From positions 3,405,607-3,445,606 of the forward strand of contig NZ_AP024895.1 of NCBI RefSeq assembly GCF_024347055.1: 40,000 nt of DNA, written 5' to 3'. The position numbers and the translations under genes were made by a program. Within the stretch, counting starts at the first letter, position 1; each line of letters opens with the position of its first letter. The DNA comes from Vibrio porteresiae DSM 19223. GTDB lineage: Bacteria; Pseudomonadota; Gammaproteobacteria; Enterobacterales; Vibrionaceae. This document shows, one piece after another, positions 1,868 to 19,618 of this stretch. Under the pieces are notes generated by a model, which searched no databases, had not been told where the DNA came from, and was given only the letters and a program-made list of their open reading frames with translations.

Positions 1868-2209
1868 TTATCCTGCTTTTTGATACTCAATTTTGTTGAT
1901 GAACCATACTTTCTTGCCTGAAGGGGTTTCGACTTCGACTTCATCATCCACTTCGCGTTTTAGCAACGCACGCGCCATCGGCGAGTCGATAGAGATATAG
2001 TTTTTTACTTCACCATAGATCTCTTCTGGTCCAACAATCCGAAAACGCTTGGTTTCCCCTTCTTCGTTTTCAATTTCGACCCACGCGCCAAAAAAGACTT
2101 TGCCATCTTGCTGTGGTGAATAATCGACCACTTGAACTTCAGGGAGAAATTTACGTAAGAAGCGTACACGGCGATCAATTTGACGTAGTAAGCGCTTATT
2201 GTATTGATA
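1868..2209 (-). pseudogene. greB: 3' fragment of the disrupted resident greB (codon 50 to stop)
   Basis: The minus-strand frame reads YQYNKRLLRQIDRRVRFLRKFLPEVQVVDYSPQQDGKVFFGAWVEIENEEG...IEYQKAG*. This is collinear with E. coli GreB from 'ENAD|YQYNKK'. No start codon or N-terminal coiled-coil is attached. The reading frame breaks at 2209/2210. Confidence 0.9.
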
Positions 2210-2392
2210 TTAGTTCTACTCTTAAGACCGTACTAATAGGTGCAATACTACTTTTAAATATCTGATATAGACAGTTCTGATTTCAAAGTTCAGTCATTTG
2301 AATTAGTGAGAACCATCAACTATATACTAATAAGTATATTAAGGAATCCTTAATTTTTATGAAGGTAATGTCACTTAGTTATAGGAGTTAGT

Positions 2393-2542
2393 ATGTCAAA
2401 ATCAAAATTCTATCCTAGCTATCAAGAAGCATGTGAAGCTGCAAGAAAGTTGAAGATTAAGACGGCGAAGGAGTACAAAAATCTTTCAGGCAAGACTGAT
2501 CGCGACACCAACGATTCAACGTCACCGAAATCAAGTGAGTAA
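2393..2542 (+). CDS. 49-aa ORF carrying a partial copy of the repeat motif found in the 1325-aa recombinase
   Basis: The ORF is below the track threshold, so I translated it myself: MSKSKFYPSYQEACEAARKLKIKTAKEYKNLSGKTDRDTNDSTSPKSSE. AGGAG lies about 8 nt upstream. The stop is 2 nt before the next ATG (2545). 'FYPSYQEACEAARKL.I.TAKEY' parallels 'FYSTYAEASEAAIGLGIQSAPEY'. Confidence 0.4.
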   Translation: MSKSKFYPSYQEACEAARKLKIKTAKEYKNLSGKTDRDTNDSTSPKSSE

Positions 2543-2544
2543 GA

Positions 2545-3840
2545 ATGGCTTATACACTTAAAAGAAGAGTTTCTTATAAGGCTAGTGCGGCGTCTTTATC
2601 ACATAACCTTCCTGCCATCTTCACTAAGAGTGGCTTGCTGATTTCTCATTTGAGGTACTTATATTCTAACCGAGGTAAATCACCATCTTGGATGGAGAGA
2701 AATACCTTTGCGGTAGAGCTTCTTTTAAAGTTTATAGAGCGCCAAGTATCAAACTTCTCATCAGCTACAGAGTTGCTCAGAGCGTTTGTTGAAGCATTAC
2801 AGTTTGGAACAATTCAAGATGGGCAAGACAGCTCTGGGTTGTTCTGGTCGACTCGCAGAAATGAAGACGTAAATGTTCTTCTTCACCATATTACGGATTA
2901 TTGCGACTACCTCGATACAGTTTATGGAACTGACTTGCCCAAGCTAAATCCCTTAAGGAAAGCAACTCATGCAGAAGAGCGTTTGCAATGGTGTGCTTAC
3001 TACAGGAGGCACAGTCGTAGCTTTCTGAATCATTTAGCTAATCCATCCCGACAGCAATTCTCAGTTGTTAGAATGATTCGAGGGCCTGAGAGGCACCTAG
3101 TCGATATCGAAGCAGTATATCGCTTTCCAGAAAACCGAATTGAAGACTTACTGCTACATGGTTTTGTTTTTCCGTCAGGAGAACCGGATTATGCTAGCCA
3201 GTTGATTGTAATGTTGATGCATTTCGGTGGGTTGAGATTGTCGGAGTGTTTTCATATATATGTCCATGATGTGCATCTAGACCAGAAATCAGGCTCAGCT
3301 CTCATATCGGTTTTTCATCCTAGTGATGGACAGTCGCCAGATGAACGTTTCTGTAAACGAAATGAATACTTGGCTACCAAATACCGACTAAATCCAAGGA
3401 ATGAGTATTCGAGAAGCCATAGACTATATGCTGGCTGGAAAGGACCTTTGCTTACAAATCGCAACCTATCCTTTGATGTGATGTTTTATCCAGCTAGTAA
3501 AGCTGTTGAATTTACTCTGGTACTACAAAAGTACCTTGCGACTAAACCCTCTTCAGAATCTCCGTTCCTTTTTGTTAACTCAAAAGGAAATCCAGAGAGT
3601 AAAAAAAATTTCTATCAGAAGCATAATAGAGCCGTTCGTCGAATTGGACTAGAACCATCCAAGTCATTAGGGACAACCCCACACGCTCATCGCCATTCCT
3701 ACGGCTATAGATTAAGCCAAGGAGGTTTTTCTCAGCTAGAGATTCAAAAAGCGATGCACCATAAAAGCCCTGAGAGTTGCTTGGTTTATTTGAAACCTTC
3801 TGACGATGAGGTTCGTCGTCAAATGAGAGACACTCACTAA
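2545..3840 (+). CDS. Tyrosine recombinase/integrase (431 aa), first of the trio (TnpA-like)
   Basis: Tyrosine recombinase catalytic signatures are present: 'GGLRLSEC' (box I Arg), 'HAHRHSYGYRL' (H-x-x-R) and 'CLVYLKPS' (nucleophile Tyr). The stop overlaps the next start (TAATG at 3838-3842). Confidence 0.85.
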   Translation: MAYTLKRRVSYKASAASLSHNLPAIFTKSGLLISHLRYLYSNRGKSPSWMERNTFAVELLLKFIERQVSNFSSATELLRAFVEALQFGTIQDGQDSSGLFWSTRRNEDVNVLLHHITDYCDYLDTVYGTDLPKLNPLRKATHAEERLQWCAYYRRHSRSFLNHLANPSRQQFSVVRMIRGPERHLVDIEAVYRFPENRIEDLLLHGFVFPSGEPDYASQLIVMLMHFGGLRLSECFHIYVHDVHLDQKSGSALISVFHPSDGQSPDERFCKRNEYLATKYRLNPRNEYSRSHRLYAGWKGPLLTNRNLSFDVMFYPASKAVEFTLVLQKYLATKPSSESPFLFVNSKGNPESKKNFYQKHNRAVRRIGLEPSKSLGTTPHAHRHSYGYRLSQGGFSQLEIQKAMHHKSPESCLVYLKPSDDEVRRQMRDTH

Positions 3841-6800
3841 TGAAAAAGTTTTACGCAACTATAAACCAAGCAAGTAAAGCGGCGATAAGATTGGGCATTC
3901 AATCGGCACAAGAATATAAGCAGCGTTACAAAGAAGATGAGCATCTTCCCGCGAATCCAAATACGCTTTATGCCGCTGACTGGGTTGATTGGTTTAGTTT
4001 TCTGGATAAAGCGAAGCGGTCTTTATATTCGACATACGCAGAGGCCAGCGAAGCCGCGATAGGATTGGGCATTCAATCGGCGCCAGAATATCAGCAGTAT
4101 TACAAAAAAGATGAGCGTCTTCCCGCGAATCCAAATACGCTTTATGCCGCTAACTGGGTTGATTGGTTTAGTTTTCTGGATAAAGCGAAGCGGTCTTTCT
4201 ATTCGACATACGCAGAGGCCAGCGAAGCCGCGATAGGATTGGGCATTCAATCAGCGCCAGAATATCAGCAGTATTACAAAAAAGATGAGCGTCTTCCCGC
4301 GAGTCCAAATATGCTTTATGCCGCTGACTGGGTTGATTGGTTTAGTTTTCTGGATAAAGCGAAGCGGTCTTTATATTCGACATACGCAGAGGCCAGCGAA
4401 GCTGCGATAGGATTGGGCATTCAATCGTTCCTAGAATATAAGCAGCGTTACAAAGAAGATGAGCGTCTTCCCGCGAGTCCAAATACGCTTTATGCCGCTG
4501 ACTGGGTTGATTGGTTTAGTTTTCTGGATAAAGCGAAGCGGTCTTTATATTCGACATACGCAGAGGCCAGCGAAGCTGCGATAGGATTGGGCATTCAATC
4601 GTTACTAGAATATAAGCAGCGTTACAAAGAAGATGAGCGTCTTCCCGCGAGTCCAAATCAGGTTTATGCTGCTGACTGGGTTGATTGGTTTAGTTTTCTG
4701 GATAAAGATAAGCGGTCTTTCTATTCGACATACGCAGAGGCCAGCGAAGCAGCAATAGGGCTGGGTATTCAATCGTCGCCAGAATATAAGCAGCGTTACA
4801 AAGAAGATGAATGTCTTCCCGCAAATCCAAATCAAATTTATGCCGCTGACTGGGTTGATTGGTTTAGTTTTCTGGATAAAGCGCAGCGGTCTCTCTATTC
4901 GACATACGCAGAGGCAAGCGAAGCAGCGATAGGATTGGGCATTCAATCGTCCCATGAATATAAGCAGCGTTACAAAGAAGATGAACGTCTTCCCGCAAAT
5001 CCAAGTCAGGTTTATGCCGCTGACTGGGTTGATTGGATTCACTTCTTATTGCCCAGAGATATATCTAATCTAAAACAGTTCAAAACAGCATGTGCGATTC
5101 TAAGAATCAAAGACTCATCTCAATACAGAGTTACACAAAAGAACTATCCTCAATTACCCTCCAAGCCTGAAAAAAGAATACCTGACTGGAGCAATTGGTA
5201 TGACGCTCTCGATATACCAAGGCTTTATGGATATGACGAACTAGCAGCTTTGGTTCAAAGCAAAGGAGTTTGCAGCCTTGCAGAGTATGCGAAACTTCGA
5301 GCTGAATCCAATGATCCTAGAATGCCAGCAAAACCAGAAGAGAATTATCAAGGAAAGGGTTGGACTAACACCTTTGACTTCTGGGGAGTTAAACGACCGT
5401 ATCAAGTGAAATACTTTACTGATGAATGGTCTTTGTGGGCGGCGACGATAAAAGAGTTTCTCAAGTCTGCACGTGGCGGAGATACCAAAGCGAAAGACTT
5501 ATGTGAATTTGTTCGTGAATACATTGAGCCAAATGGTTTTGAAACATCCCCGTTGGAGTTTCTCACACGTGGCTCGACAAACATTCAACCAATGCTGAAT
5601 CTGTTTGAACAAGTTCCAGTGACACGAAGAAAAAAATGGGCGTTTTCAATCAATGAGTTCTTAGATTGGATTATCTCTAGTTATCTTATTTTGGAAGACA
5701 CAGAGACCGGAGAAATTACTCACATCAAGGACGCCAAAAACCCATTTAGTCACATTAATTTTAATGGAGAAACTGCGCCTCAAGTTGTCAATGAAACAGA
5801 TAAGATGGCTCTGCCTTATCAATATGTAAAAGCAGGGCGAGAGTGGATATTTCCATTAGACTCCGTAGAGAAAAAGCTAAATTATTGGGATTTAGCTCAT
5901 TTGCATCCTTTTTCATCAGACTGGGTGCAGATCAACGATAGCTCTCTCCTAGATAAAAACGACCCTGATTGCGTTTTCAAAGTTGAAAATGGGAAAACCT
6001 ATCTTTGGTTTCCAACATACTGGACCTATACGTACTCACTCATGCAACTCCCTGCAAGAGGGATGCAAATCGTCTATTGCGACTCTGGGGAGGCAGATCA
6101 AGAACTCGCCGACTTTAAGAACAATAAAGTCGTTTGGAAGAAAAATAGGACTATGTTAGCTGGCCTAACCAATCGTCAGAGCATGGTGAGTAAGTCAGGG
6201 CAAGGAGAGTTCGGTGTCCATTATACATCCAACAAAACTAAGTTTGATGGTTCAGGCTACACTATTCCCTTCATGCCCATAGAACTGGCATATTGGTTGG
6301 TAAAGCTTAGAAAGTGGCAACAGAAATATAATCCACTAAAGGAGCCAACGAAATGGCTTGATTGTGAGCGCACCAATCTAAACGAAGTTCAGCGTAAGCA
6401 AAAAGGGGCGAATTGCTTTTTATTCCGCGACTATCTAGAAAAAGAGCCAGGCACATTTAGTGGCAGACTAGCGACACGGCTTGCTGCTGCACTATATTTT
6501 TCTGCCAAGAATGATATTACAACGGCTACCTACAAAGGATTAAAATACAATCAATCGATGAAAGAATTGGAAAATAGTCAAACGATACCACTTTCACGCT
6601 TTAAATCCCCTTACACTCCACACTCAATGCGCGTCAGTTTGATCAATGCTTACGCGTATGAGTTCGGCATTCCTTTGGAAGTCATAATGAAATTGGTCGG
6701 CCATTCCAGCATCATAATGACCATCTACTATACCAAGAGCGATAAAACAGGCAGCAACTTACGAGAGAAAATGGAGTTGGGTGAAAAGGAGGCGATGAGC

Positions 6801-7817
6801 AAAGCAACGCAAACGCTCAAATCCTTTGTGGAACAGCAGAGAATTGAAGAAGTTAAATCACAGTTAGTAGGTTCATCTTTGGATCTACTAAGTTCACTCG
6901 ACAATGCTCGCCCGGCCTCTAGCTATTTATGGAAAGACTTTGGTATCTGCCCTGTAGGAGGTGCTTTTTGTTCAGAGGGGGGCATTCCTGTAGCTACCAA
7001 AGCCAACATATATCACTCTGTACCAGCAGGTTATTTGGGTGAGCAGAACTGTTTTCAGTGTCGATTTTTTATTACCGGCCCTGCTTTTTTGGTTGGACTT
7101 ACTGCCATATTCAATGAGATAAGCCTAGCCGTAAACACGCAATCTATACGTTACACTTCTCTTGAGCAGGAGATTGATAATATTGCAGAAAAGATAGATG
7201 TCATTGATCACCAACTTTACAAAATAAAAGCGGATAGCTCAGAGAAGTCTGCTCTGGAGTCTGATAGACGTAAGTTAGTTGGACAACGTATGCACTTGAA
7301 CTCGGCAATTGAAACACGAGCGAAGAAGCTAGATTTGTACCTTTCAGACATGAACGCAATTCACCGACATATACATAATTGTCAAACTCTTATGCGTAAC
7401 CCTAAAGAAAACACGGAGAATCACTATCAGCTTATTGTTCCGCATGAATTCACATTAGGTGTAGAGTTGGATGAAGTAAGCAATTTTCATCAACTATCAG
7501 AAGTGTGTTCGAATGCAGAGCTGTACCACAGCTGTAGCGACGACTTAGCGGTAACAAGACGCTCCCAAATGATCGACAAAATGATGGTCGAAAACGGTAT
7601 TCAGCCGCAACTTTTTTTACTGTCAGAAGCAGAGCAACTCTTAGTGGGGAACCAGTTAACAGAGTTGATGCTGGCAAGGTTGAAAGGCTGGGAGAACGTC
7701 GACCGTCTTATGGATGGGAGTTTGACTTTAAAGGACCTATCGATAGATAACAATTTTGATGAAAAGACTATTCGAGAATTGTTTGAGAAGTCGAAACCAC
7801 TAAAAAGGATCGGTTAG
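3840..7817 (+). CDS. Giant tyrosine recombinase (1325 aa) with N-terminal 58-aa repeat array, a Cys-rich segment and a coiled-coil C-terminus (TnpB-like)
   Basis: 'YTPHSMRVSLINAY' (H-x-x-R) and 'VGHSSIIMTIYYTKSD' (His and Tyr) indicate a tyrosine recombinase core at about aa 910-965. A Cys cluster follows: 'FGICPVGGAFCSEGG...EQNCFQCRFF'. There are seven near-identical N-terminal repeats and two degenerate ones. Confidence 0.85.
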   Translation: MKKFYATINQASKAAIRLGIQSAQEYKQRYKEDEHLPANPNTLYAADWVDWFSFLDKAKRSLYSTYAEASEAAIGLGIQSAPEYQQYYKKDERLPANPNTLYAANWVDWFSFLDKAKRSFYSTYAEASEAAIGLGIQSAPEYQQYYKKDERLPASPNMLYAADWVDWFSFLDKAKRSLYSTYAEASEAAIGLGIQSFLEYKQRYKEDERLPASPNTLYAADWVDWFSFLDKAKRSLYSTYAEASEAAIGLGIQSLLEYKQRYKEDERLPASPNQVYAADWVDWFSFLDKDKRSFYSTYAEASEAAIGLGIQSSPEYKQRYKEDECLPANPNQIYAADWVDWFSFLDKAQRSLYSTYAEASEAAIGLGIQSSHEYKQRYKEDERLPANPSQVYAADWVDWIHFLLPRDISNLKQFKTACAILRIKDSSQYRVTQKNYPQLPSKPEKRIPDWSNWYDALDIPRLYGYDELAALVQSKGVCSLAEYAKLRAESNDPRMPAKPEENYQGKGWTNTFDFWGVKRPYQVKYFTDEWSLWAATIKEFLKSARGGDTKAKDLCEFVREYIEPNGFETSPLEFLTRGSTNIQPMLNLFEQVPVTRRKKWAFSINEFLDWIISSYLILEDTETGEITHIKDAKNPFSHINFNGETAPQVVNETDKMALPYQYVKAGREWIFPLDSVEKKLNYWDLAHLHPFSSDWVQINDSSLLDKNDPDCVFKVENGKTYLWFPTYWTYTYSLMQLPARGMQIVYCDSGEADQELADFKNNKVVWKKNRTMLAGLTNRQSMVSKSGQGEFGVHYTSNKTKFDGSGYTIPFMPIELAYWLVKLRKWQQKYNPLKEPTKWLDCERTNLNEVQRKQKGANCFLFRDYLEKEPGTFSGRLATRLAAALYFSAKNDITTATYKGLKYNQSMKELENSQTIPLSRFKSPYTPHSMRVSLINAYAYEFGIPLEVIMKLVGHSSIIMTIYYTKSDKTGSNLREKMELGEKEAMSKATQTLKSFVEQQRIEEVKSQLVGSSLDLLSSLDNARPASSYLWKDFGICPVGGAFCSEGGIPVATKANIYHSVPAGYLGEQNCFQCRFFITGPAFLVGLTAIFNEISLAVNTQSIRYTSLEQEIDNIAEKIDVIDHQLYKIKADSSEKSALESDRRKLVGQRMHLNSAIETRAKKLDLYLSDMNAIHRHIHNCQTLMRNPKENTENHYQLIVPHEFTLGVELDEVSNFHQLSEVCSNAELYHSCSDDLAVTRRSQMIDKMMVENGIQPQLFLLSEAEQLLVGNQLTELMLARLKGWENVDRLMDGSLTLKDLSIDNNFDEKTIRELFEKSKPLKRIG
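3849..5040 (+). repeat. Seven tandem 174-bp (58-aa) in-frame coding repeats
   Basis: The period was measured from recurring 'ctttatattcgacatacgcagaggccagcgaagc' at 4021, 4195, 4369 and onward. The unit is (F/L)YSTYAEASEAAIGLGIQS.(P/L)EY(K/Q)Q(R/Y)YK(E/K)DERLPA(N/S)PN..YAA(D/N)WVDWFSFLDKAKRS. The copies are very similar at the DNA level. Confidence 0.95.
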
Positions 7818-7818
7818 C

Positions 7819-8442
7819 ATGTCAACAATTACTCCTGATCAAGTTCTGAATCAACTAAAAAAGAAAGCCTCACCTCGAGTACAAAACTCACTAGAGGCAG
7901 TGTTCACCATATGCAAGGAACAACAAGAACGTGGATTGAATGACTTTAGCTATTCCACGATAGCCCGCCTTGGAAAAGGGCGAGGAGTTCCTGCGGCACA
8001 AAGTATCCGAAACAAAACCGGTGAATCGTACCGAACCTTAATTGAAAGCTTCAACTCTTCAACAAAAGACCAACCAAAGCCAGCACGAAACACCTCAAAA
8101 GGTAAGATGCACGCTTGGATAGATGAATTAGAAGACCCAGTAGTTAAACTTCAAGCCAACATTCTCTATGCGCAAAAAAAAGAAGCAGAACGACTACTTA
8201 ATGAAATAGTGCCAATCAACCAGGTCATTGAAGTGTTCGATAACGTCGATGTCTCTGTTGCGTCGATTAAGCTCACTGAGCTGGAAAGAAGCGCATTGGA
8301 GTACCTCATTTCTAGTGAGTTTTTACGTAGACATCAATTGGAGGTTGGAAAAAATGGCAGTATAGTTTCGAGTGATACTCAAAAGTCTTTTTTCCGTGTT
8401 GCAACCATCGATGCAATCAAAAAGGCGCTAAAAAACTTATAG
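7819..8442 (+). CDS. 207-aa recombinase-operon accessory protein (TnpC-like position)
   Basis: It starts 2 nt after the stop of the 1325-aa gene and has no catalytic motif I can see. Position and size fit the third gene of Tn554-type trios. From memory, RefSeq names similar triplets 'gamma-mobile-trio' GmtX/Y/Z; this is unverified. Confidence 0.55.
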   Translation: MSTITPDQVLNQLKKKASPRVQNSLEAVFTICKEQQERGLNDFSYSTIARLGKGRGVPAAQSIRNKTGESYRTLIESFNSSTKDQPKPARNTSKGKMHAWIDELEDPVVKLQANILYAQKKEAERLLNEIVPINQVIEVFDNVDVSVASIKLTELERSALEYLISSEFLRRHQLEVGKNGSIVSSDTQKSFFRVATIDAIKKALKNL

Positions 8443-8460
8443 ATAACTTGGACTGTAGAA

Positions 8461-8937
8461 GTGAAAACAAAACTAATCACCAGAGAAGGTTACAACAAAC
8501 TGAAAGCTGAACATGACCACTTATGGAATGAAAAACGACCTGAAATTACTAAAATTGTAACTTGGGCTGCAAGCTTAGGTGACCGCTCTGAGAATGCTGA
8601 TTACACCTTCAATAAGCGTTTACTTCGCCAGATAGATAGGCGAGTCCGGTTTCTAAGAAAGTTTTTACCTGAAGTAACCGTTGTTGATTACTCTCCTCAA
8701 CAAGAAGGTAAAGTGTTTTTCGGAGCCTGGGTCGAAATTGAAAATGAATCCGGTGATGTGATGAAATTTCGTATTGTTGGTCCAGAAGAAATCTATGGGG
8801 GCGCTAAAAATTATATATCTATTGATTCCCCAATGGCGCGAGCGCTCTTGAAGAAAGAAGTTGATGACGAGTTTACCGTTCAGACTCCTGATGGGGATAA
8901 AGAATGGTTTATCAACTCAATTACATACGAAAAATAA
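8461..8937 (+). CDS. greB: Complete island-borne transcript cleavage factor GreB (158 aa, GTG start)
   Basis: It is full-length and collinear with E. coli GreB: 'TREGYNKLKAEHDHLWNEKRPEITKIVTWAASLGDRSENADY...DYSPQQEGKVFFGAWVEIEN...ISIDSPMARALLKKEV'. It lies 18 nt downstream of the trio, on the same strand. It differs from the resident greB at many synonymous sites. Confidence 0.9.
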   Translation: MKTKLITREGYNKLKAEHDHLWNEKRPEITKIVTWAASLGDRSENADYTFNKRLLRQIDRRVRFLRKFLPEVTVVDYSPQQEGKVFFGAWVEIENESGDVMKFRIVGPEEIYGGAKNYISIDSPMARALLKKEVDDEFTVQTPDGDKEWFINSITYEK

Positions 8938-8996
8938 ACTTGATTGGTTAATCTCGAATACAATCCAAAGTGCTGAAATAGAGCTGTTTATTGCTA

Positions 8997-16972: not shown

Positions 16973-17344
16973 ATGGAGTGTGTCTTAAAATCGCCTAAGA
17001 TTAGGTTGGCTGTGACATTATTTCTCACGATTGTGATAGGAGTTTTTTCTAGCTTATTTGCTACAGAAATAACACCAAATGGGATTGTTGAATGGAATAG
17101 AACATTTAAGACGTATTCTTTTTGGATATTGATAATATTAAGTATCATTTGGTTATGGATACATATTAATTTGATGGAGTATGATAATAGTATATTGGCT
17201 TTTTCTGATGATGAATATTGTAAGGCTTACATGAGAAAAGCTCAGCTTGAAGCATATGTATTAAATATTAAAGAAAATCCCAAAGAAGTAAATACTATGG
17301 AGTTGAATGAATTTAAATCAAAGTTGGAAGGATATAAAAAATGA
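16973..17344 (+). CDS. Two-TM membrane protein with a C-terminal amphipathic helix (123 aa), first gene of the AT-rich operon
   Basis: AGGAG lies about 12 nt upstream. The TM helices are 'LAVTLFLTIVIGVFSSLFA' and 'YSFWILIILSIIWLWIHI'. The stop overlaps the next start (ATGA at 17341-17344). Confidence 0.6.
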   Translation: MECVLKSPKIRLAVTLFLTIVIGVFSSLFATEITPNGIVEWNRTFKTYSFWILIILSIIWLWIHINLMEYDNSILAFSDDEYCKAYMRKAQLEAYVLNIKENPKEVNTMELNEFKSKLEGYKK

Positions 17345-17607
17345 GTGTTTTGGTTTCCAGTAAATTTGCCGATGAGTTACGTGGTTATAAACTAGATTCG
17401 CAAGTTTCTGAAATTTTCAGTTTATTAGAAAACATGGATTATAATAGTCCTTCGCAAATGCATAACGTAAAGATTATAGACGGTGAAAAACAGTCAATAT
17501 ATGTTTTAAAACATAAAAACTGGAGGGTTTTCTTTACTAAACAAGAAAATGACATTGTATTATTAAGCATCACAGATAGTAAAGTGATAAGACATTTCAA
17601 TGGATAA
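17341..17607 (+). CDS. Small RelE/ParE-fold-like protein (88 aa)
   Basis: 'IYVLKHKNWRVFFTKQENDIVLLSITD' resembles the RelE/ParE core pattern (l)YrlRvGdyRviY.i.d..i.il.i. It is preceded by a helical segment. It is translationally coupled to the upstream membrane protein rather than to a soluble antitoxin. Confidence 0.45.
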   Translation: MSVLVSSKFADELRGYKLDSQVSEIFSLLENMDYNSPSQMHNVKIIDGEKQSIYVLKHKNWRVFFTKQENDIVLLSITDSKVIRHFNG

Positions 17608-17713
17608 ATATAGTATTCTTGGTTTTAAGTTACTTAATTATTGCAATGTTGGTATTTATGCACCATTGAATTATACGTGATAGGGAACATCCTTGAATGG
17701 AGTAGCATTGAAT

Positions 17714-18127
17714 ATGGAAAATAAAAAAGTAAAATGGCTGATTTACACTGTTCTAGTGGGGCTGATTCCTATCCTATCAAGGATATTTGTCTGGAGTGTC
17801 ACTGAGGTTGGGGTAGTCAGTTTAATAATGCCAGCAGACTTTATTGCTTTTGGTTTAATTTTACATATTTCTAATATCAATGAAATTGAACATCTAACAG
17901 ATGATGAAAAATCGTGGAAAACTATTCAAAATGGAACCTCTATAGCCTTCATTGCTTTTTATAGCGTTTTATTTTCATTGATAATGATAAGTGAGAGTAT
18001 TCCAAACTTGATAGACATGGGAGCAATCAAATTTTGCACTATAGGTTTATCTGTGGTCTCTTTTTTAATTAGTTTTTCTGTATTCCATAGAATTTCGAAA
18101 ATTGCAGCTAATGAGGTAACAGTATAA
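17714..18127 (+). CDS. Four-TM membrane protein (about 138 aa)
   Basis: The helices are 'WLIYTVLVGLIPILSRIFVW', 'VVSLIMPADFIAFGLILHI', 'SIAFIAFYSVLFSLIMI' and 'FCTIGLSVVSFLISFSVF'. The ATG at 17714 has GGAG 11 nt upstream; the track starts at a TTG at 17693. Confidence 0.6.
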   Translation: MENKKVKWLIYTVLVGLIPILSRIFVWSVTEVGVVSLIMPADFIAFGLILHISNINEIEHLTDDEKSWKTIQNGTSIAFIAFYSVLFSLIMISESIPNLIDMGAIKFCTIGLSVVSFLISFSVFHRISKIAANEVTV

Positions 18128-18258
18128 TGGTTACTACAATTATAATTGCATTAACTTTGGTTATGGTCTTTGTTGGTATTTCCACTGTTGTCTGGTCAAT
18201 AATTAATACAAGAAATAAATTTTACGAAGAATACAAGGCAAGGAATAAAAATAAATGA
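18127..18258 (+). CDS. 43-aa single-TM peptide
   Basis: The ORF is below the track threshold, so I translated it myself: MVTTIIIALTLVMVFVGISTVVWSIINTRNKFYEEYKARNKNK. Its start overlaps the upstream stop (TAATG). Its stop overlaps the downstream start (ATGA at 18255-18258). This double coupling argues that it is translated. Confidence 0.5.
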   Translation: MVTTIIIALTLVMVFVGISTVVWSIINTRNKFYEEYKARNKNK

Positions 18259-19196
18259 TAAAGAATTTTATATACTTAGACGAAGATAAAATGTATTCAT
18301 TATCATCTCAAATATTTGAAGGGATAACTGAATATGTTTTAAATGAAAGCTCTTCAGATAATCAAGAAAGTGAGACTCAAAAAGGCCCAGTAGGAAGTGG
18401 TAAGGTTTTAGCTGATGTAATTATTTCAAGTAGTAAGGCAACTGAGAAAAAGTTTTTTCATGACTACTCATTTACATTATTTGAAAATCATCTAATGGAG
18501 CAAGGCCGGGTTTTAGATCTAACAAGTGCAACACTTTCTTTAGAAGATCTTAAAGCATCCATTACTGACTTTTCTTTTATAAAAACAAAAGCTAAGTCAA
18601 CATTTAATGATGTGAATAAAATAACTGAGTTATTTTCCGAGTTTAATACGATTGGTGAAGCACTAGCACATATGGGAGCATTTTCCCGAATTAACGAACT
18701 AACTTCCGAGCTTGCATTGTTGAAGAAGCAAACACCAGATAGGAATAAAAGATCCCAACTCGAAGCTGAGTATAAGAAACTAACTAACCTCAAAGAATTA
18801 GCTAAAGCTGGCAGCCTTTATCAAGATCAAAAGTTTTTAGATAACTTAAGTTTATTAACTAAATATGGTTTTTCGGATCAATTTGAAATAACGCAACCTA
18901 TCGGCGAGGCACTTTTTACTTCATGTTTAAAACGTGATTTTCTGAGGGAGAGTGAGGATATATTAGTTAAAAAATATTCTCGAAAAACTGAAAAGAAAGT
19001 TGTTATCTTCGGAATAATATCTCAAGCATTTTCAGGTAATGAAATGGAATTAGATGAAAAAGGTAAAGATTATTCAAACATGAAGGCTGCACTGTTAAAC
19101 CTTGTCGATCATTTAACTAACATTGAACATTCTATTTCCGGAAAGCAAGAAAATGAAGTCGTCATTGATCCCATAGCCGTCTACTTTGAAGTGTAA
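18255..19196 (+). CDS. 313-aa soluble protein of unknown function, last gene of the AT-rich operon
   Basis: It is a long ORF in about 30% GC DNA with no TM segment. The N-terminus is 'MIKNFIYLDEDKMYSLSSQIFEGI' and the middle is coiled-coil-like ('LTSELALLKKQTPDRNKRSQLEAEYKKLTNLKELAK'). I recognise no catalytic motif. Confidence 0.7.
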   Translation: MIKNFIYLDEDKMYSLSSQIFEGITEYVLNESSSDNQESETQKGPVGSGKVLADVIISSSKATEKKFFHDYSFTLFENHLMEQGRVLDLTSATLSLEDLKASITDFSFIKTKAKSTFNDVNKITELFSEFNTIGEALAHMGAFSRINELTSELALLKKQTPDRNKRSQLEAEYKKLTNLKELAKAGSLYQDQKFLDNLSLLTKYGFSDQFEITQPIGEALFTSCLKRDFLRESEDILVKKYSRKTEKKVVIFGIISQAFSGNEMELDEKGKDYSNMKAALLNLVDHLTNIEHSISGKQENEVVIDPIAVYFEV

Positions 19197-19267
19197 TGCC
19201 TATAACAACCGATCAATGTATCAGCATACTTTTCCTAACCTGACAGAAACTCTTTAATGCGATTGTT

Positions 19268-19291
19268 CTAAACGGTTTCTGTCCATTTCCG
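19268..19291 (+). repeat. Cassette-boundary repeat, copy C (core only)
   Basis: 'ctaaacggtttctgtccatttccg' shares the core AAACG(n)GTTTCTGTCCAyTTyCG with copy B. Confidence 0.55.
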
Positions 19292-19379
19292 AGTTAAATT
19301 ATGGATTTTCTGCCTGTGATCACCAAGCGATTCTGTCGTACCTTGGCCGTGGTTAATTGTGTTTTGTTTAAGTGAAAAT

Positions 19380-19417
19380 AGTACATATGAATAGTATACA
19401 TACTATTCATATGTACT
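19380..19417. repeat. 38-bp perfect palindrome about 55 bp inside the island right end
   Basis: AGTACATATGAATAGTAT-AC-ATACTATTCATATGTACT has 18-bp arms that are exact reverse complements. Confidence 0.9.
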
Positions 19418-19453
19418 GTTTAATTAGTTGATTAGGTATATTTAGTATGTTTT

Positions 19454-19618
19454 TTATACTTCTAAAGCCATATCTGCATTTTCAGAGCGATCTCCTAGAC
19501 TGGCCGCCCAAGTCACTATTTTGGTGACTTCAGGACGCTGCTCATTCCACAGGTAATCGTGTTCTTCTTTGAGTTTATTGTAGCCCTCACGGGTGATCAG
19601 TTTGGTTTTCACTGACAT
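19454..19618 (-). pseudogene. greB: 5' fragment of the disrupted resident greB (codons 1-49 fused to 5 island-derived codons)
   Basis: The minus strand reads MSVKTKLITREGYNKLKEEHDYLWNEQRPEVTKIVTWAASLGDRSENAD, then MALEV* read from island DNA. The sub-threshold ORF was translated by me. Confidence 0.9.

Follow-up and report, generated by a model that had tools for sequence, protein, structure and literature searches.

The 40,000-nt stretch of Vibrio porteresiae DSM 19223 analysed here (the window, assigned in the analysis to chromosome CP138203.1, whose own coordinates are used throughout; L and P numbers denote comparison loci and proteins) very probably contains a Gamma-Mobile-Trio (GMT) island at 2210-19471, inserted site specifically at the boundary of codons 49 and 50 of the chromosomal greB. 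We lean towards the view that GMT islands, at least those of the greB clade, move by the rule known from Tn554 and from SEs (strand-biased circularizing integrative elements), in which the six bases at the left flank of the donor pass into the spacer of the circle and from there to the right end of the new copy. The element class, the greB target, the compensating greB copy and this island itself are already published. The possibly new point is the hexamer footprint together with a captured circle, which argue for a strand-biased GMT mechanism of the Tn554/SE type; no paper linking the hexamer footprint, Tn554 or SEs to GMT islands was found in the literature searched.

The two minus-strand frames that border the insert translate to GreB residues 1-49, ending in ...SLGDRSENAD, and to residues 50-162 followed by the natural stop, starting with YQYNKRLLRQ (Table 1). 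A protein search found the rejoined 162-aa GreB intact in public assemblies (P0121; 100% identity, 100% coverage). Four metagenome contigs (L008-L011) represent the empty site, with the same Tex-GGDEF-greB-ompR-envZ synteny as in the window, and the joined window flanks align to them with 98.4-99.6% identity over 3 kb, a likeness at the level of a single species. Across the joint, these contigs read ...GAAAATGCAGAT/TATCAATACAAT... (in a longer reading, AGTCTAGGAGATCGCTCTGAAAATGCAGAT/TATCAATACAAT), and not a single base is added or missing. The insert is thus exactly 2210..19471, 17,262 bp, between greB codons D49 and Y50, and the alignment of the joined flanks to the four empty-site contigs revealed no target-site duplication. 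An earlier, sequence-only reading of this DNA had proposed a clean split of greB at codon 49/50 by a 17,262-bp insert lacking a target duplication, and had suggested a comparison with an uninterrupted region; its coordinates and frames proved correct, and the joined sequence was recovered in the empty-site contigs. The GC content is 38.8% within the island and 46.3% outside.

The same reading had named an assembly artefact as a possible source of error. The left junction is present again in five other assemblies and the right junction in four, indicating that the split is not an artefact. That unrelated contigs were misjoined here, which was a possibility a priori and nothing more, is so improbable that it can be set aside, as both junctions occur in a complete chromosome and in independent assemblies whose reads come from separate sequencing runs, and the same architecture is found in many species.

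The equivalog models for GmtY, GmtZ and GmtX all score above their cutoffs, which identifies the insert as a GMT island. The trio consists of two tyrosine recombinases and one small accessory protein; its genes are co-oriented at the 5′ border of the island, with the start of gmtY 335 bp from the left junction. The NCBI name of the window protein WP_261893950.1 is GmtY of Vibrio porteresiae, and hundreds of homologues carry the name GmtY. Three further traits of the class were found. The empty-site contigs lack all 17,262 bp, the cargo is rich in defence genes, and a homologue of the disrupted gene, greB, is carried within the island.

GMT islands were described as a class by Mahata et al. (bioRxiv 10.1101/2023.03.28.534373), who reported that the trio delimits the islands on their 5′ side, that the islands are excised as circles and copied and pasted into specific naive sites in a process that requires all three Gmt proteins, and that intragenic insertions often bring a homologue of the disrupted gene. 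Circle excision and trio-dependent transfer were demonstrated there for VPaI-6 of V. parahaemolyticus. In Dataset S2 of the same preprint (bioRxiv 10.1101/2023.03.28.534373), about 67 rows give "transcription elongation factor GreB" as the entry site, including islands from Pseudomonas, Acinetobacter, Photobacterium and Vibrio, and their naive sites are centred on the D/Y or E/Y boundary. Row 253 is V. porteresiae DSM 19223, with GmtY WP_261893950.1 and entry into greB, the two flanking alignments lying 17,265 bp apart (bioRxiv 10.1101/2023.03.28.534373). This accession is the GmtY encoded in the window, so that greB, which the sequence-only reading did not know as a described attachment site, had been listed as one, and with this very island. 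The GMT work of Mahata et al. has reportedly since been published in Nature Microbiology (2024). The island of the window resembles VPaI-6 and other GMT islands in its 5′ trio, its defence-rich cargo, its specific naive site and its internal homologue of the disrupted gene. VPaI-6, however, targets an intergenic inverted repeat, whereas the greB clade targets coding sequence without an obvious inverted repeat. The six carried bases and the TTAG...CTAA termini presented below are not described in the GMT paper, and the preprint leaves the mechanism open and cites neither Tn554 nor SEs (bioRxiv 10.1101/2023.03.28.534373).

Site specificity was assessed on both sides of the island. For the left junction, we used GmtY homologues at 98%, 87%, 70% and 64% identity (V. 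eleionomae, Photobacterium, V. fluvialis and three Shewanella contigs). A greB fragment from residue 50 lies directly left of the island in all GmtY relatives examined, down to 64% identity, with the flank starting at Y50 in L007, L014, L016/17 and L018-20. For the right junction, one genome per species and the JGI metagenomes were scanned with a pattern made of CTAA, 6 nt and the degenerate reverse complement of GDRSENAD/E. This yielded 24 true matches, the window and L018 counted in, from Shewanella, Vibrio, Photobacterium, Enterovibrio, Rheinheimera, Psychrosphaera and uncultured sources, all at the same codon boundary, after D49 or, in three of them, E49. The metagenome matches L047 and L051 were dropped from this set, as they have an intact Gre-family gene and no island features. 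This GmtY clade uses one greB codon boundary in Vibrio, Photobacterium and Shewanella and, judging by the right junction, in Rheinheimera, Psychrosphaera and Enterovibrio as well. The site-specific insertion read from the window extends to its relatives, and the GmtY relatives examined, down to 64% identity, do sit at greB 49/50.

Plasmid-borne greB-type islands at non-greB sites also exist. We considered whether plasmid-borne relatives sit in a greB gene of the plasmid and rejected this, the sole greB there being the island's own. One of the Shewanella islands in greB (L018, 9863-18656) is only about 8.8 kb long and lacks gmtX and the carried greB. Its 6-mer, TTAGTG, resembles the beginning of a left island end, and this copy may have decayed or been rearranged.

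When the last six bases on the right are set aside, the island of the window ends in TTAGTTCTAC...ATACTTCTAA, an imperfect inverted repeat with the family consensus TTAGNNCYAY. The earlier statement that the element has no terminal inverted repeats is therefore accurate if those six bases are counted as the terminus; otherwise, short imperfect repeats are present. All seven related left ends (five distinct sequences) start with TTAGT. On the right, CTAA was demanded by the search pattern, having been seen earlier and independently in the window and in L018, and TAGTAT at -19..-14 was not part of that pattern. Every right end is built in the same order, with a TAGTAT-N-ATACTA palindrome approximately 50 to 65 nt from the end, a single TAGTAT at -19..-14 from CTAA (1.6-2.0 bits in the 24 islands), CTAA, six bases and greB. 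On the left, RTACTA at nt 21-26 is conserved in the Photobacterium, V. fluvialis and Shewanella relatives. RTACTAWW was not enriched over the 40 kb scanned (11 matches versus 9.2 expected), and the meaning of the motif therefore rests on its clustering at the ends, where 6 of the 11 matches lie within about 125 bp of the two termini, and on its conservation in relatives. The sequence-only reading had already pointed out the recurrence of ATACTA(A/T)T near the ends, to which this clustering and the same offset in the 24 related islands can now be added. The left subterminal RTACTAWW motifs are probable recombinase-binding sites.

Between the invariant CTAA and the conserved greB flank, the 24 islands carry 24 different 6-mers, with a mean of 0.36 bit per position. 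Variability is confined to the right end; on the left, TTAG always adjoins the Y50 codon. When the window is compared with V. gelatinilyticus (L029), 23 of the 25 preceding bases agree but none of the six (AGCCAT versus TTGATG), and island pairs with 20-23 identical subterminal bases out of 25 share only 0-3 positions of the 6-mer. The 6-mer of one Shewanella island (She_holmiensis), TTGGTA, is an exact greB Y-Q core.

The source of these bases is suggested by Halomonas sp. THAF12. This strain has a greB-type GMT island on plasmid pTHAF12_a (NZ_CP045400.1, 121350-169237), with a GmtY 44% identical to that of the window and gmtYZX followed by greB. A second sequence of this strain, pTHAF12_b (NZ_CP045401.1, 47,894 bp), consists of the 47,888-bp pTHAF12_a island at 100% identity plus six bases; it has the same 44 genes as the island and no identified replicon. 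Its junction reads GGTTCTTT/GGTGTA/AAAGAACC, that is, perfect 8-bp inverted repeats around a 6-bp spacer. pTHAF12_b appears to be the circular form of a gmtYZX-greB island, deposited as a "plasmid." On pTHAF12_a, the left junction is ...GGGGTTTTTTCAT/AAAGAACC, with an unrelated left flank, TTTCAT, and the right junction is GGTTCTTT/GGTGTA followed by GCCACTG. According to Dataset S2, the chromosome (NZ_CP045399.1) has a further copy in greB, for which row 283 gives the naive site ...GAGAACGCCGAC/TACACCTAC..., with GAC/TACACC at the boundary, pointing to GGTGTA as the left-flank core of the chromosomal copy. GGTGTA is thus met in three places, namely the left flank deduced for the chromosome, the circle spacer and the right end on pTHAF12_a, as the Tn554/SE rule predicts.

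The insertion site on pTHAF12_a is approximately 60 bp downstream of radC, a gene of the plasmid, and just past a terminator-like hairpin (NZ_CP045400.1, ~120738-121452; L034, 19287-20001). radC is the classical target gene of Tn554, and GATGTA occurs in the radC stop region of pTHAF12_a; all this is probably a coincidence.

For the island of the window, we consider a six-base footprint model of circle formation and integration to be probable. Formation of the circle would copy the six left-flank bases into the circle junction as a spacer. On integration, this spacer would land at the new right end, and the six bases of the target itself would stay on the left, which would explain the missing target duplication. 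AGCCAT would then have been the hexamer at the left flank of an earlier site outside greB, probably on a plasmid, and TTGATA, just left of the crossover, would be the bases that the next circle carries. This is the behaviour reported for SEs, in which the six bases native to the target stay at attL and the six left-flank bases of the donor reach attR through the circle spacer (PMC10214605). The 6-7-bp donor-flank rule of Tn554 is also consistent with the hypervariable 6-mer of the 24 islands and with the three sightings of GGTGTA, the one at the chromosome flank being deduced.

A number of points weigh against this model and its extension to the clade. The footprint of this island is read back from its present ends rather than from an observed transposition, and the left flank of the chromosomal Halomonas copy is deduced from the naive site that Dataset S2 gives for a related genome. 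It is conceivable, too, that pTHAF12_b arose in assembly and is not a true circle. Only 2 of 25 6-mers, GGTGTA and TTGGTA, are exact greB cores, so that most of them would need unknown secondary sites as their source. The 6-mers are also non-random, with A at position 6 in 18 of 24 and A or T at position 5 in 21 of 24; this WA bias fits a shared site preference, and it also fits a weak constraint on an intrinsic spacer. In V. salinus (L024), the 6-mer is TACACC, which on the opposite strand reads as the greB core GGTGTA; simple carry-over does not predict this. A search of viral contigs for the circle junction of this island gave 0 matches. Finally, the circle described by the GMT authors lacks flanking repeats, and no carried spacer is mentioned (bioRxiv 10.1101/2023.03.28.534373).

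The alternative that best withstands these data is that the six bases are an intrinsic, weakly constrained overlap or spacer of attP, which moves unchanged with the island and diverges by mutation, with no carry-over from the flanks. It would accommodate the WA bias at positions 5-6, and also the Halomonas circle, whose spacer is the 6-mer that the pTHAF12_a copy has at its right end and not the left flank of that copy, TTTCAT. The chromosomal Halomonas copy, however, offers a donor with GGTGTA as its deduced left flank, and point mutation leaves unexplained how 23 of 25 adjacent bases can be the same when 0 of the 6 are. As GGTGTA and TTGGTA are, in addition, exact greB left-flank cores, we regard an intrinsic spacer as unlikely, albeit with a chance that is far from negligible.

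The likeness to Tn554 could also mean that the element is a true member of that family that has spread into the Gammaproteobacteria. The Tn554 family (Tn554, Tn553/"Tn552-II"), found in staphylococci and enterococci, likewise has two tyrosine recombinases and a small third protein at its left end and inserts site specifically without duplication. Its elements have at the right end 6-7 bases "brought in" from the donor, as proposed here for GMT islands, and form a circle that carries this spacer. Tn552-II of pW51A even matches the layout of the window, with a split target gene, tnpA, tnpB, tnpC, a target-gene-like gene and cargo, so that the order of small recombinase, large recombinase, small protein, target-gene-like gene and cargo is shared, as are the lack of duplication and, putatively, the donor-type sequence at the right end. 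The proteins nevertheless speak against membership. Compared with the Tn552-II tnpABC products of pW51A, GmtY is 22% identical to TnpA over 87 aa (E = 4e-4) and GmtZ 28% identical to TnpB over 78 aa (E = 0.01; both E values for a single comparison), in both cases through the generic box II only, and GmtX gave no alignment with TnpC, which is a DUF6262 protein. TnpB is half as large as GmtZ and lacks the INT_rpt and Integrase_2 (PF13009) domains of the latter, the window proteins pass the GMT equivalog cutoffs, the elements are found in Gammaproteobacteria, and they enter greB, where the Tn554 family uses radC or a yolD-like gene. Family membership is thus very unlikely. The comparison with Tn554 made by the sequence-only reading remains apt as an analogy of mechanism, and a donor-derived 6-mer at the right end, if that is what it is, would make it closer than this reading saw; as a family assignment it gives way to the GMT models.

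Even less likely is a classical Int/Xis island or prophage remnant that would use a core shared by attP and attB and rebuild its target from a carried fragment. Tyrosine recombinases, site-specific insertion in a conserved gene and the GC contrast with the flanks would suit such an element, but the junctions have neither direct repeats nor a core in common, the empty site has no duplicated base, greB is not rebuilt at the junction and is carried instead as a whole separate copy, and a Pfam scan of the window proteins found no phage structural or Xis genes.

Other mobile elements share part of this organization. Like the island of the window, SEs end in imperfect inverted repeats and have six additional bases on the right only, which in SEs are a footprint of the left flank placed at attR, and their movement is copy-out-like; their terminal repeats measure 13-19 bp (PMC10214605), compared with the approximately 10 bp of TTAGNNCYAY here. 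SEs are set apart by gene content, with four core genes, intA, tfp, intB and srap, where GMT islands have three, and no tfp-like open reading frame (ORF) lies between gmtY and gmtZ in the window. We asked whether GmtY homologues on IncHI2 and Vibrio plasmids might be SEs and rejected this, as they belong to ordinary three-gene GMT islands. GInts (ginABCD) and RIT elements also have a multi-recombinase module at one end of the island. Their three recombinase-like genes, to which GInts add a fourth small gene, are unlike the gene content of the window, and GInts are flanked by imperfect direct repeats.

If the footprint rule holds for GMT islands, the right-end 6-mer, AGCCAT here, would be a readable record of the previous address of an island, and for most islands in greB the preceding site would have been another locus, probably on a plasmid. 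In pTHAF12_b, a circular intermediate would have been captured. Footprints could then be used to trace the movement of defence islands between plasmids and chromosomes, and GMT islands, SEs and Tn554 would form one mechanistic class in Gram-negative and Gram-positive bacteria.

The insertion leaves two greB genes at the locus. The truncated resident greB continues for five codons (MALEV) into the island, where it meets a stop at 19454-19456. Four other assemblies also have the resulting 54-aa product, and gene callers annotate it in several. The truncated gene keeps its start and promoter side (19454-19618), and the product includes the N-terminal coiled-coil part with the conserved acidic motif GDRSENAD. 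The full-length greB within the element, absent from the account given by the sequence-only reading, starts 18 bases after gmtX and is 83% identical to the resident gene at the amino acid level and 72% at the nucleotide level. A greB gene directly follows gmtX also in L014, L019 and L020 and in the Halomonas and Pseudomonas plasmid islands. As judged from its sequence, the island copy can replace the gene destroyed by insertion. At the crossover core (window 8590-8625), the island greB reads GAT/TACACCTTC (Y-T-F) and the resident gene GAT/TATCAATAC (Y-Q-Y). The island core is YTF or YKE in Vibrio, Photobacterium and Shewanella, and YQY in the Halomonas and Pseudomonas plasmid copies. These comparisons include L014 and L019. 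Such an altered core, TACACC in place of TATCAA, could shield the carried greB from being targeted. TACACC, the V. salinus 6-mer, also corresponds to the sense codons Y-T of the island-borne greB; the GGTGTA core is seen in Shewanella and Halomonas flanks.

Table 1. Coordinates of the greB fragments, island ends, genes and other features in the 40,000-nt window
Feature	Position	Strand	Evidence or remark
Resident greB, 3′ part, codons 50-162 and stop	1868..2209	-	Left flank of the island; 100% match to P0121 residues 50-162
Target core TTGATA (reverse complement of Y50-Q51, TATCAA)	2204..2209		Just left of the crossover; junction alignment
Left terminal inverted repeat TTAGTTCTAC	2210..2219	+	Pairs with 19456-19465
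Left subterminal RTACTAWW motifs	2230-2237 and 2324-2331	+	Motif scan
49-aa ORF just upstream of gmtY	2393..2542	+	Same position in L001, L004-L007, L014, L016
gmtY, 431-aa tyrosine recombinase	2545..3840	+	NF040693 equivalog, 507 bits (cutoff 340); PF00589
gmtZ, 1325-aa large integrase	3840..7817	+	NF047926, 727 bits (cutoff 600)
gmtX, 207-aa accessory protein	7819..8442	+	NF040692, 223 bits (cutoff 40)
Island-borne full-length greB, 158 aa	8461..8937	+	GreB equivalog models, 248 and 235 bits
HTH control protein	8997-9203	-	Profile matches
VspR-like protein	9296-9838	+	Profile matches
ResIII helicase, shortened to 163 aa	9832-10323	+	Intact version of 460 aa in Photobacterium relative L014
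Group II intron domain V/VI remnant	10715..10791	-	Rfam RF00029, 54 bits (gathering score 40)
M78/capP-like peptidase	12357-12854	+	Pfam PF06114; PADLOC capP
Beta protein	12841-13986	+	Pfam PF14350; PADLOC beta; module-level evidence also NF033832
sce7726-family protein	14011-14808	-	Module evidence NF033832; PADLOC cll
RexA/RexB-like abortive-infection pair	15099..16590	+	PF15969 (1e-38), PF15968; PADLOC RexA (1e-32), RexB (8e-15)
DUF6414 protein, last cargo gene	18255..19196	+	PF19952 (6e-26)
Right subterminal region	19376..19448		Palindrome with 22-nt arms (19376-19421) holding three RTACTAWW copies; single TTTAGTAT motif at 19441-19448
Right terminal inverted repeat ATACTTCTAA	19456..19465	+	All 24 related right ends finish with CTAA
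Extra bases AGCCAT between right terminus and greB	19466..19471		Hypervariable in 24 islands
Resident greB, 5′ part, codons 1-49	19472..19618	-	Translation

GmtZ is composed of seven INT_rpt repeats (PF14882), an Integrase_2 domain (PF13009, 3e-65) and a C-terminal tyrosine-recombinase catalytic region (PF00589). The repeats, near-identical units of 58 aa, occupy residues 1-400 at its start (window 3840-5100), and the length of GmtZ ranges from 1150 to 1384 aa among close relatives, presumably with repeat number. Speculatively, the INT_rpt repeats may be arm-binding modules for the RTACTA motifs at the island ends. GmtX had no Pfam match at E≤0.01. The small ORF that precedes gmtY, 44-72 aa long in relatives, had no Pfam match either for the 49-aa version of the window; it could be a fourth conserved small gene of this GmtY clade.

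Beyond the carried greB, the cargo is dominated by anti-phage systems as predicted from profile matches. The genes at 12357..14808 make up a candidate defence module, and they are followed by the RexA/RexB-like pair; an HTH/VspR-like pair accompanied by the shortened helicase is also part of the cargo. In the region 9832-10791, the shortened helicase gene and the intron remnant, located on the opposite strand approximately 390 bp downstream of the helicase stop, suggest an old intron insertion and a subsequent deletion. At the right border, the DUF6414 gene adjoins the truncated greB in independent assemblies too.

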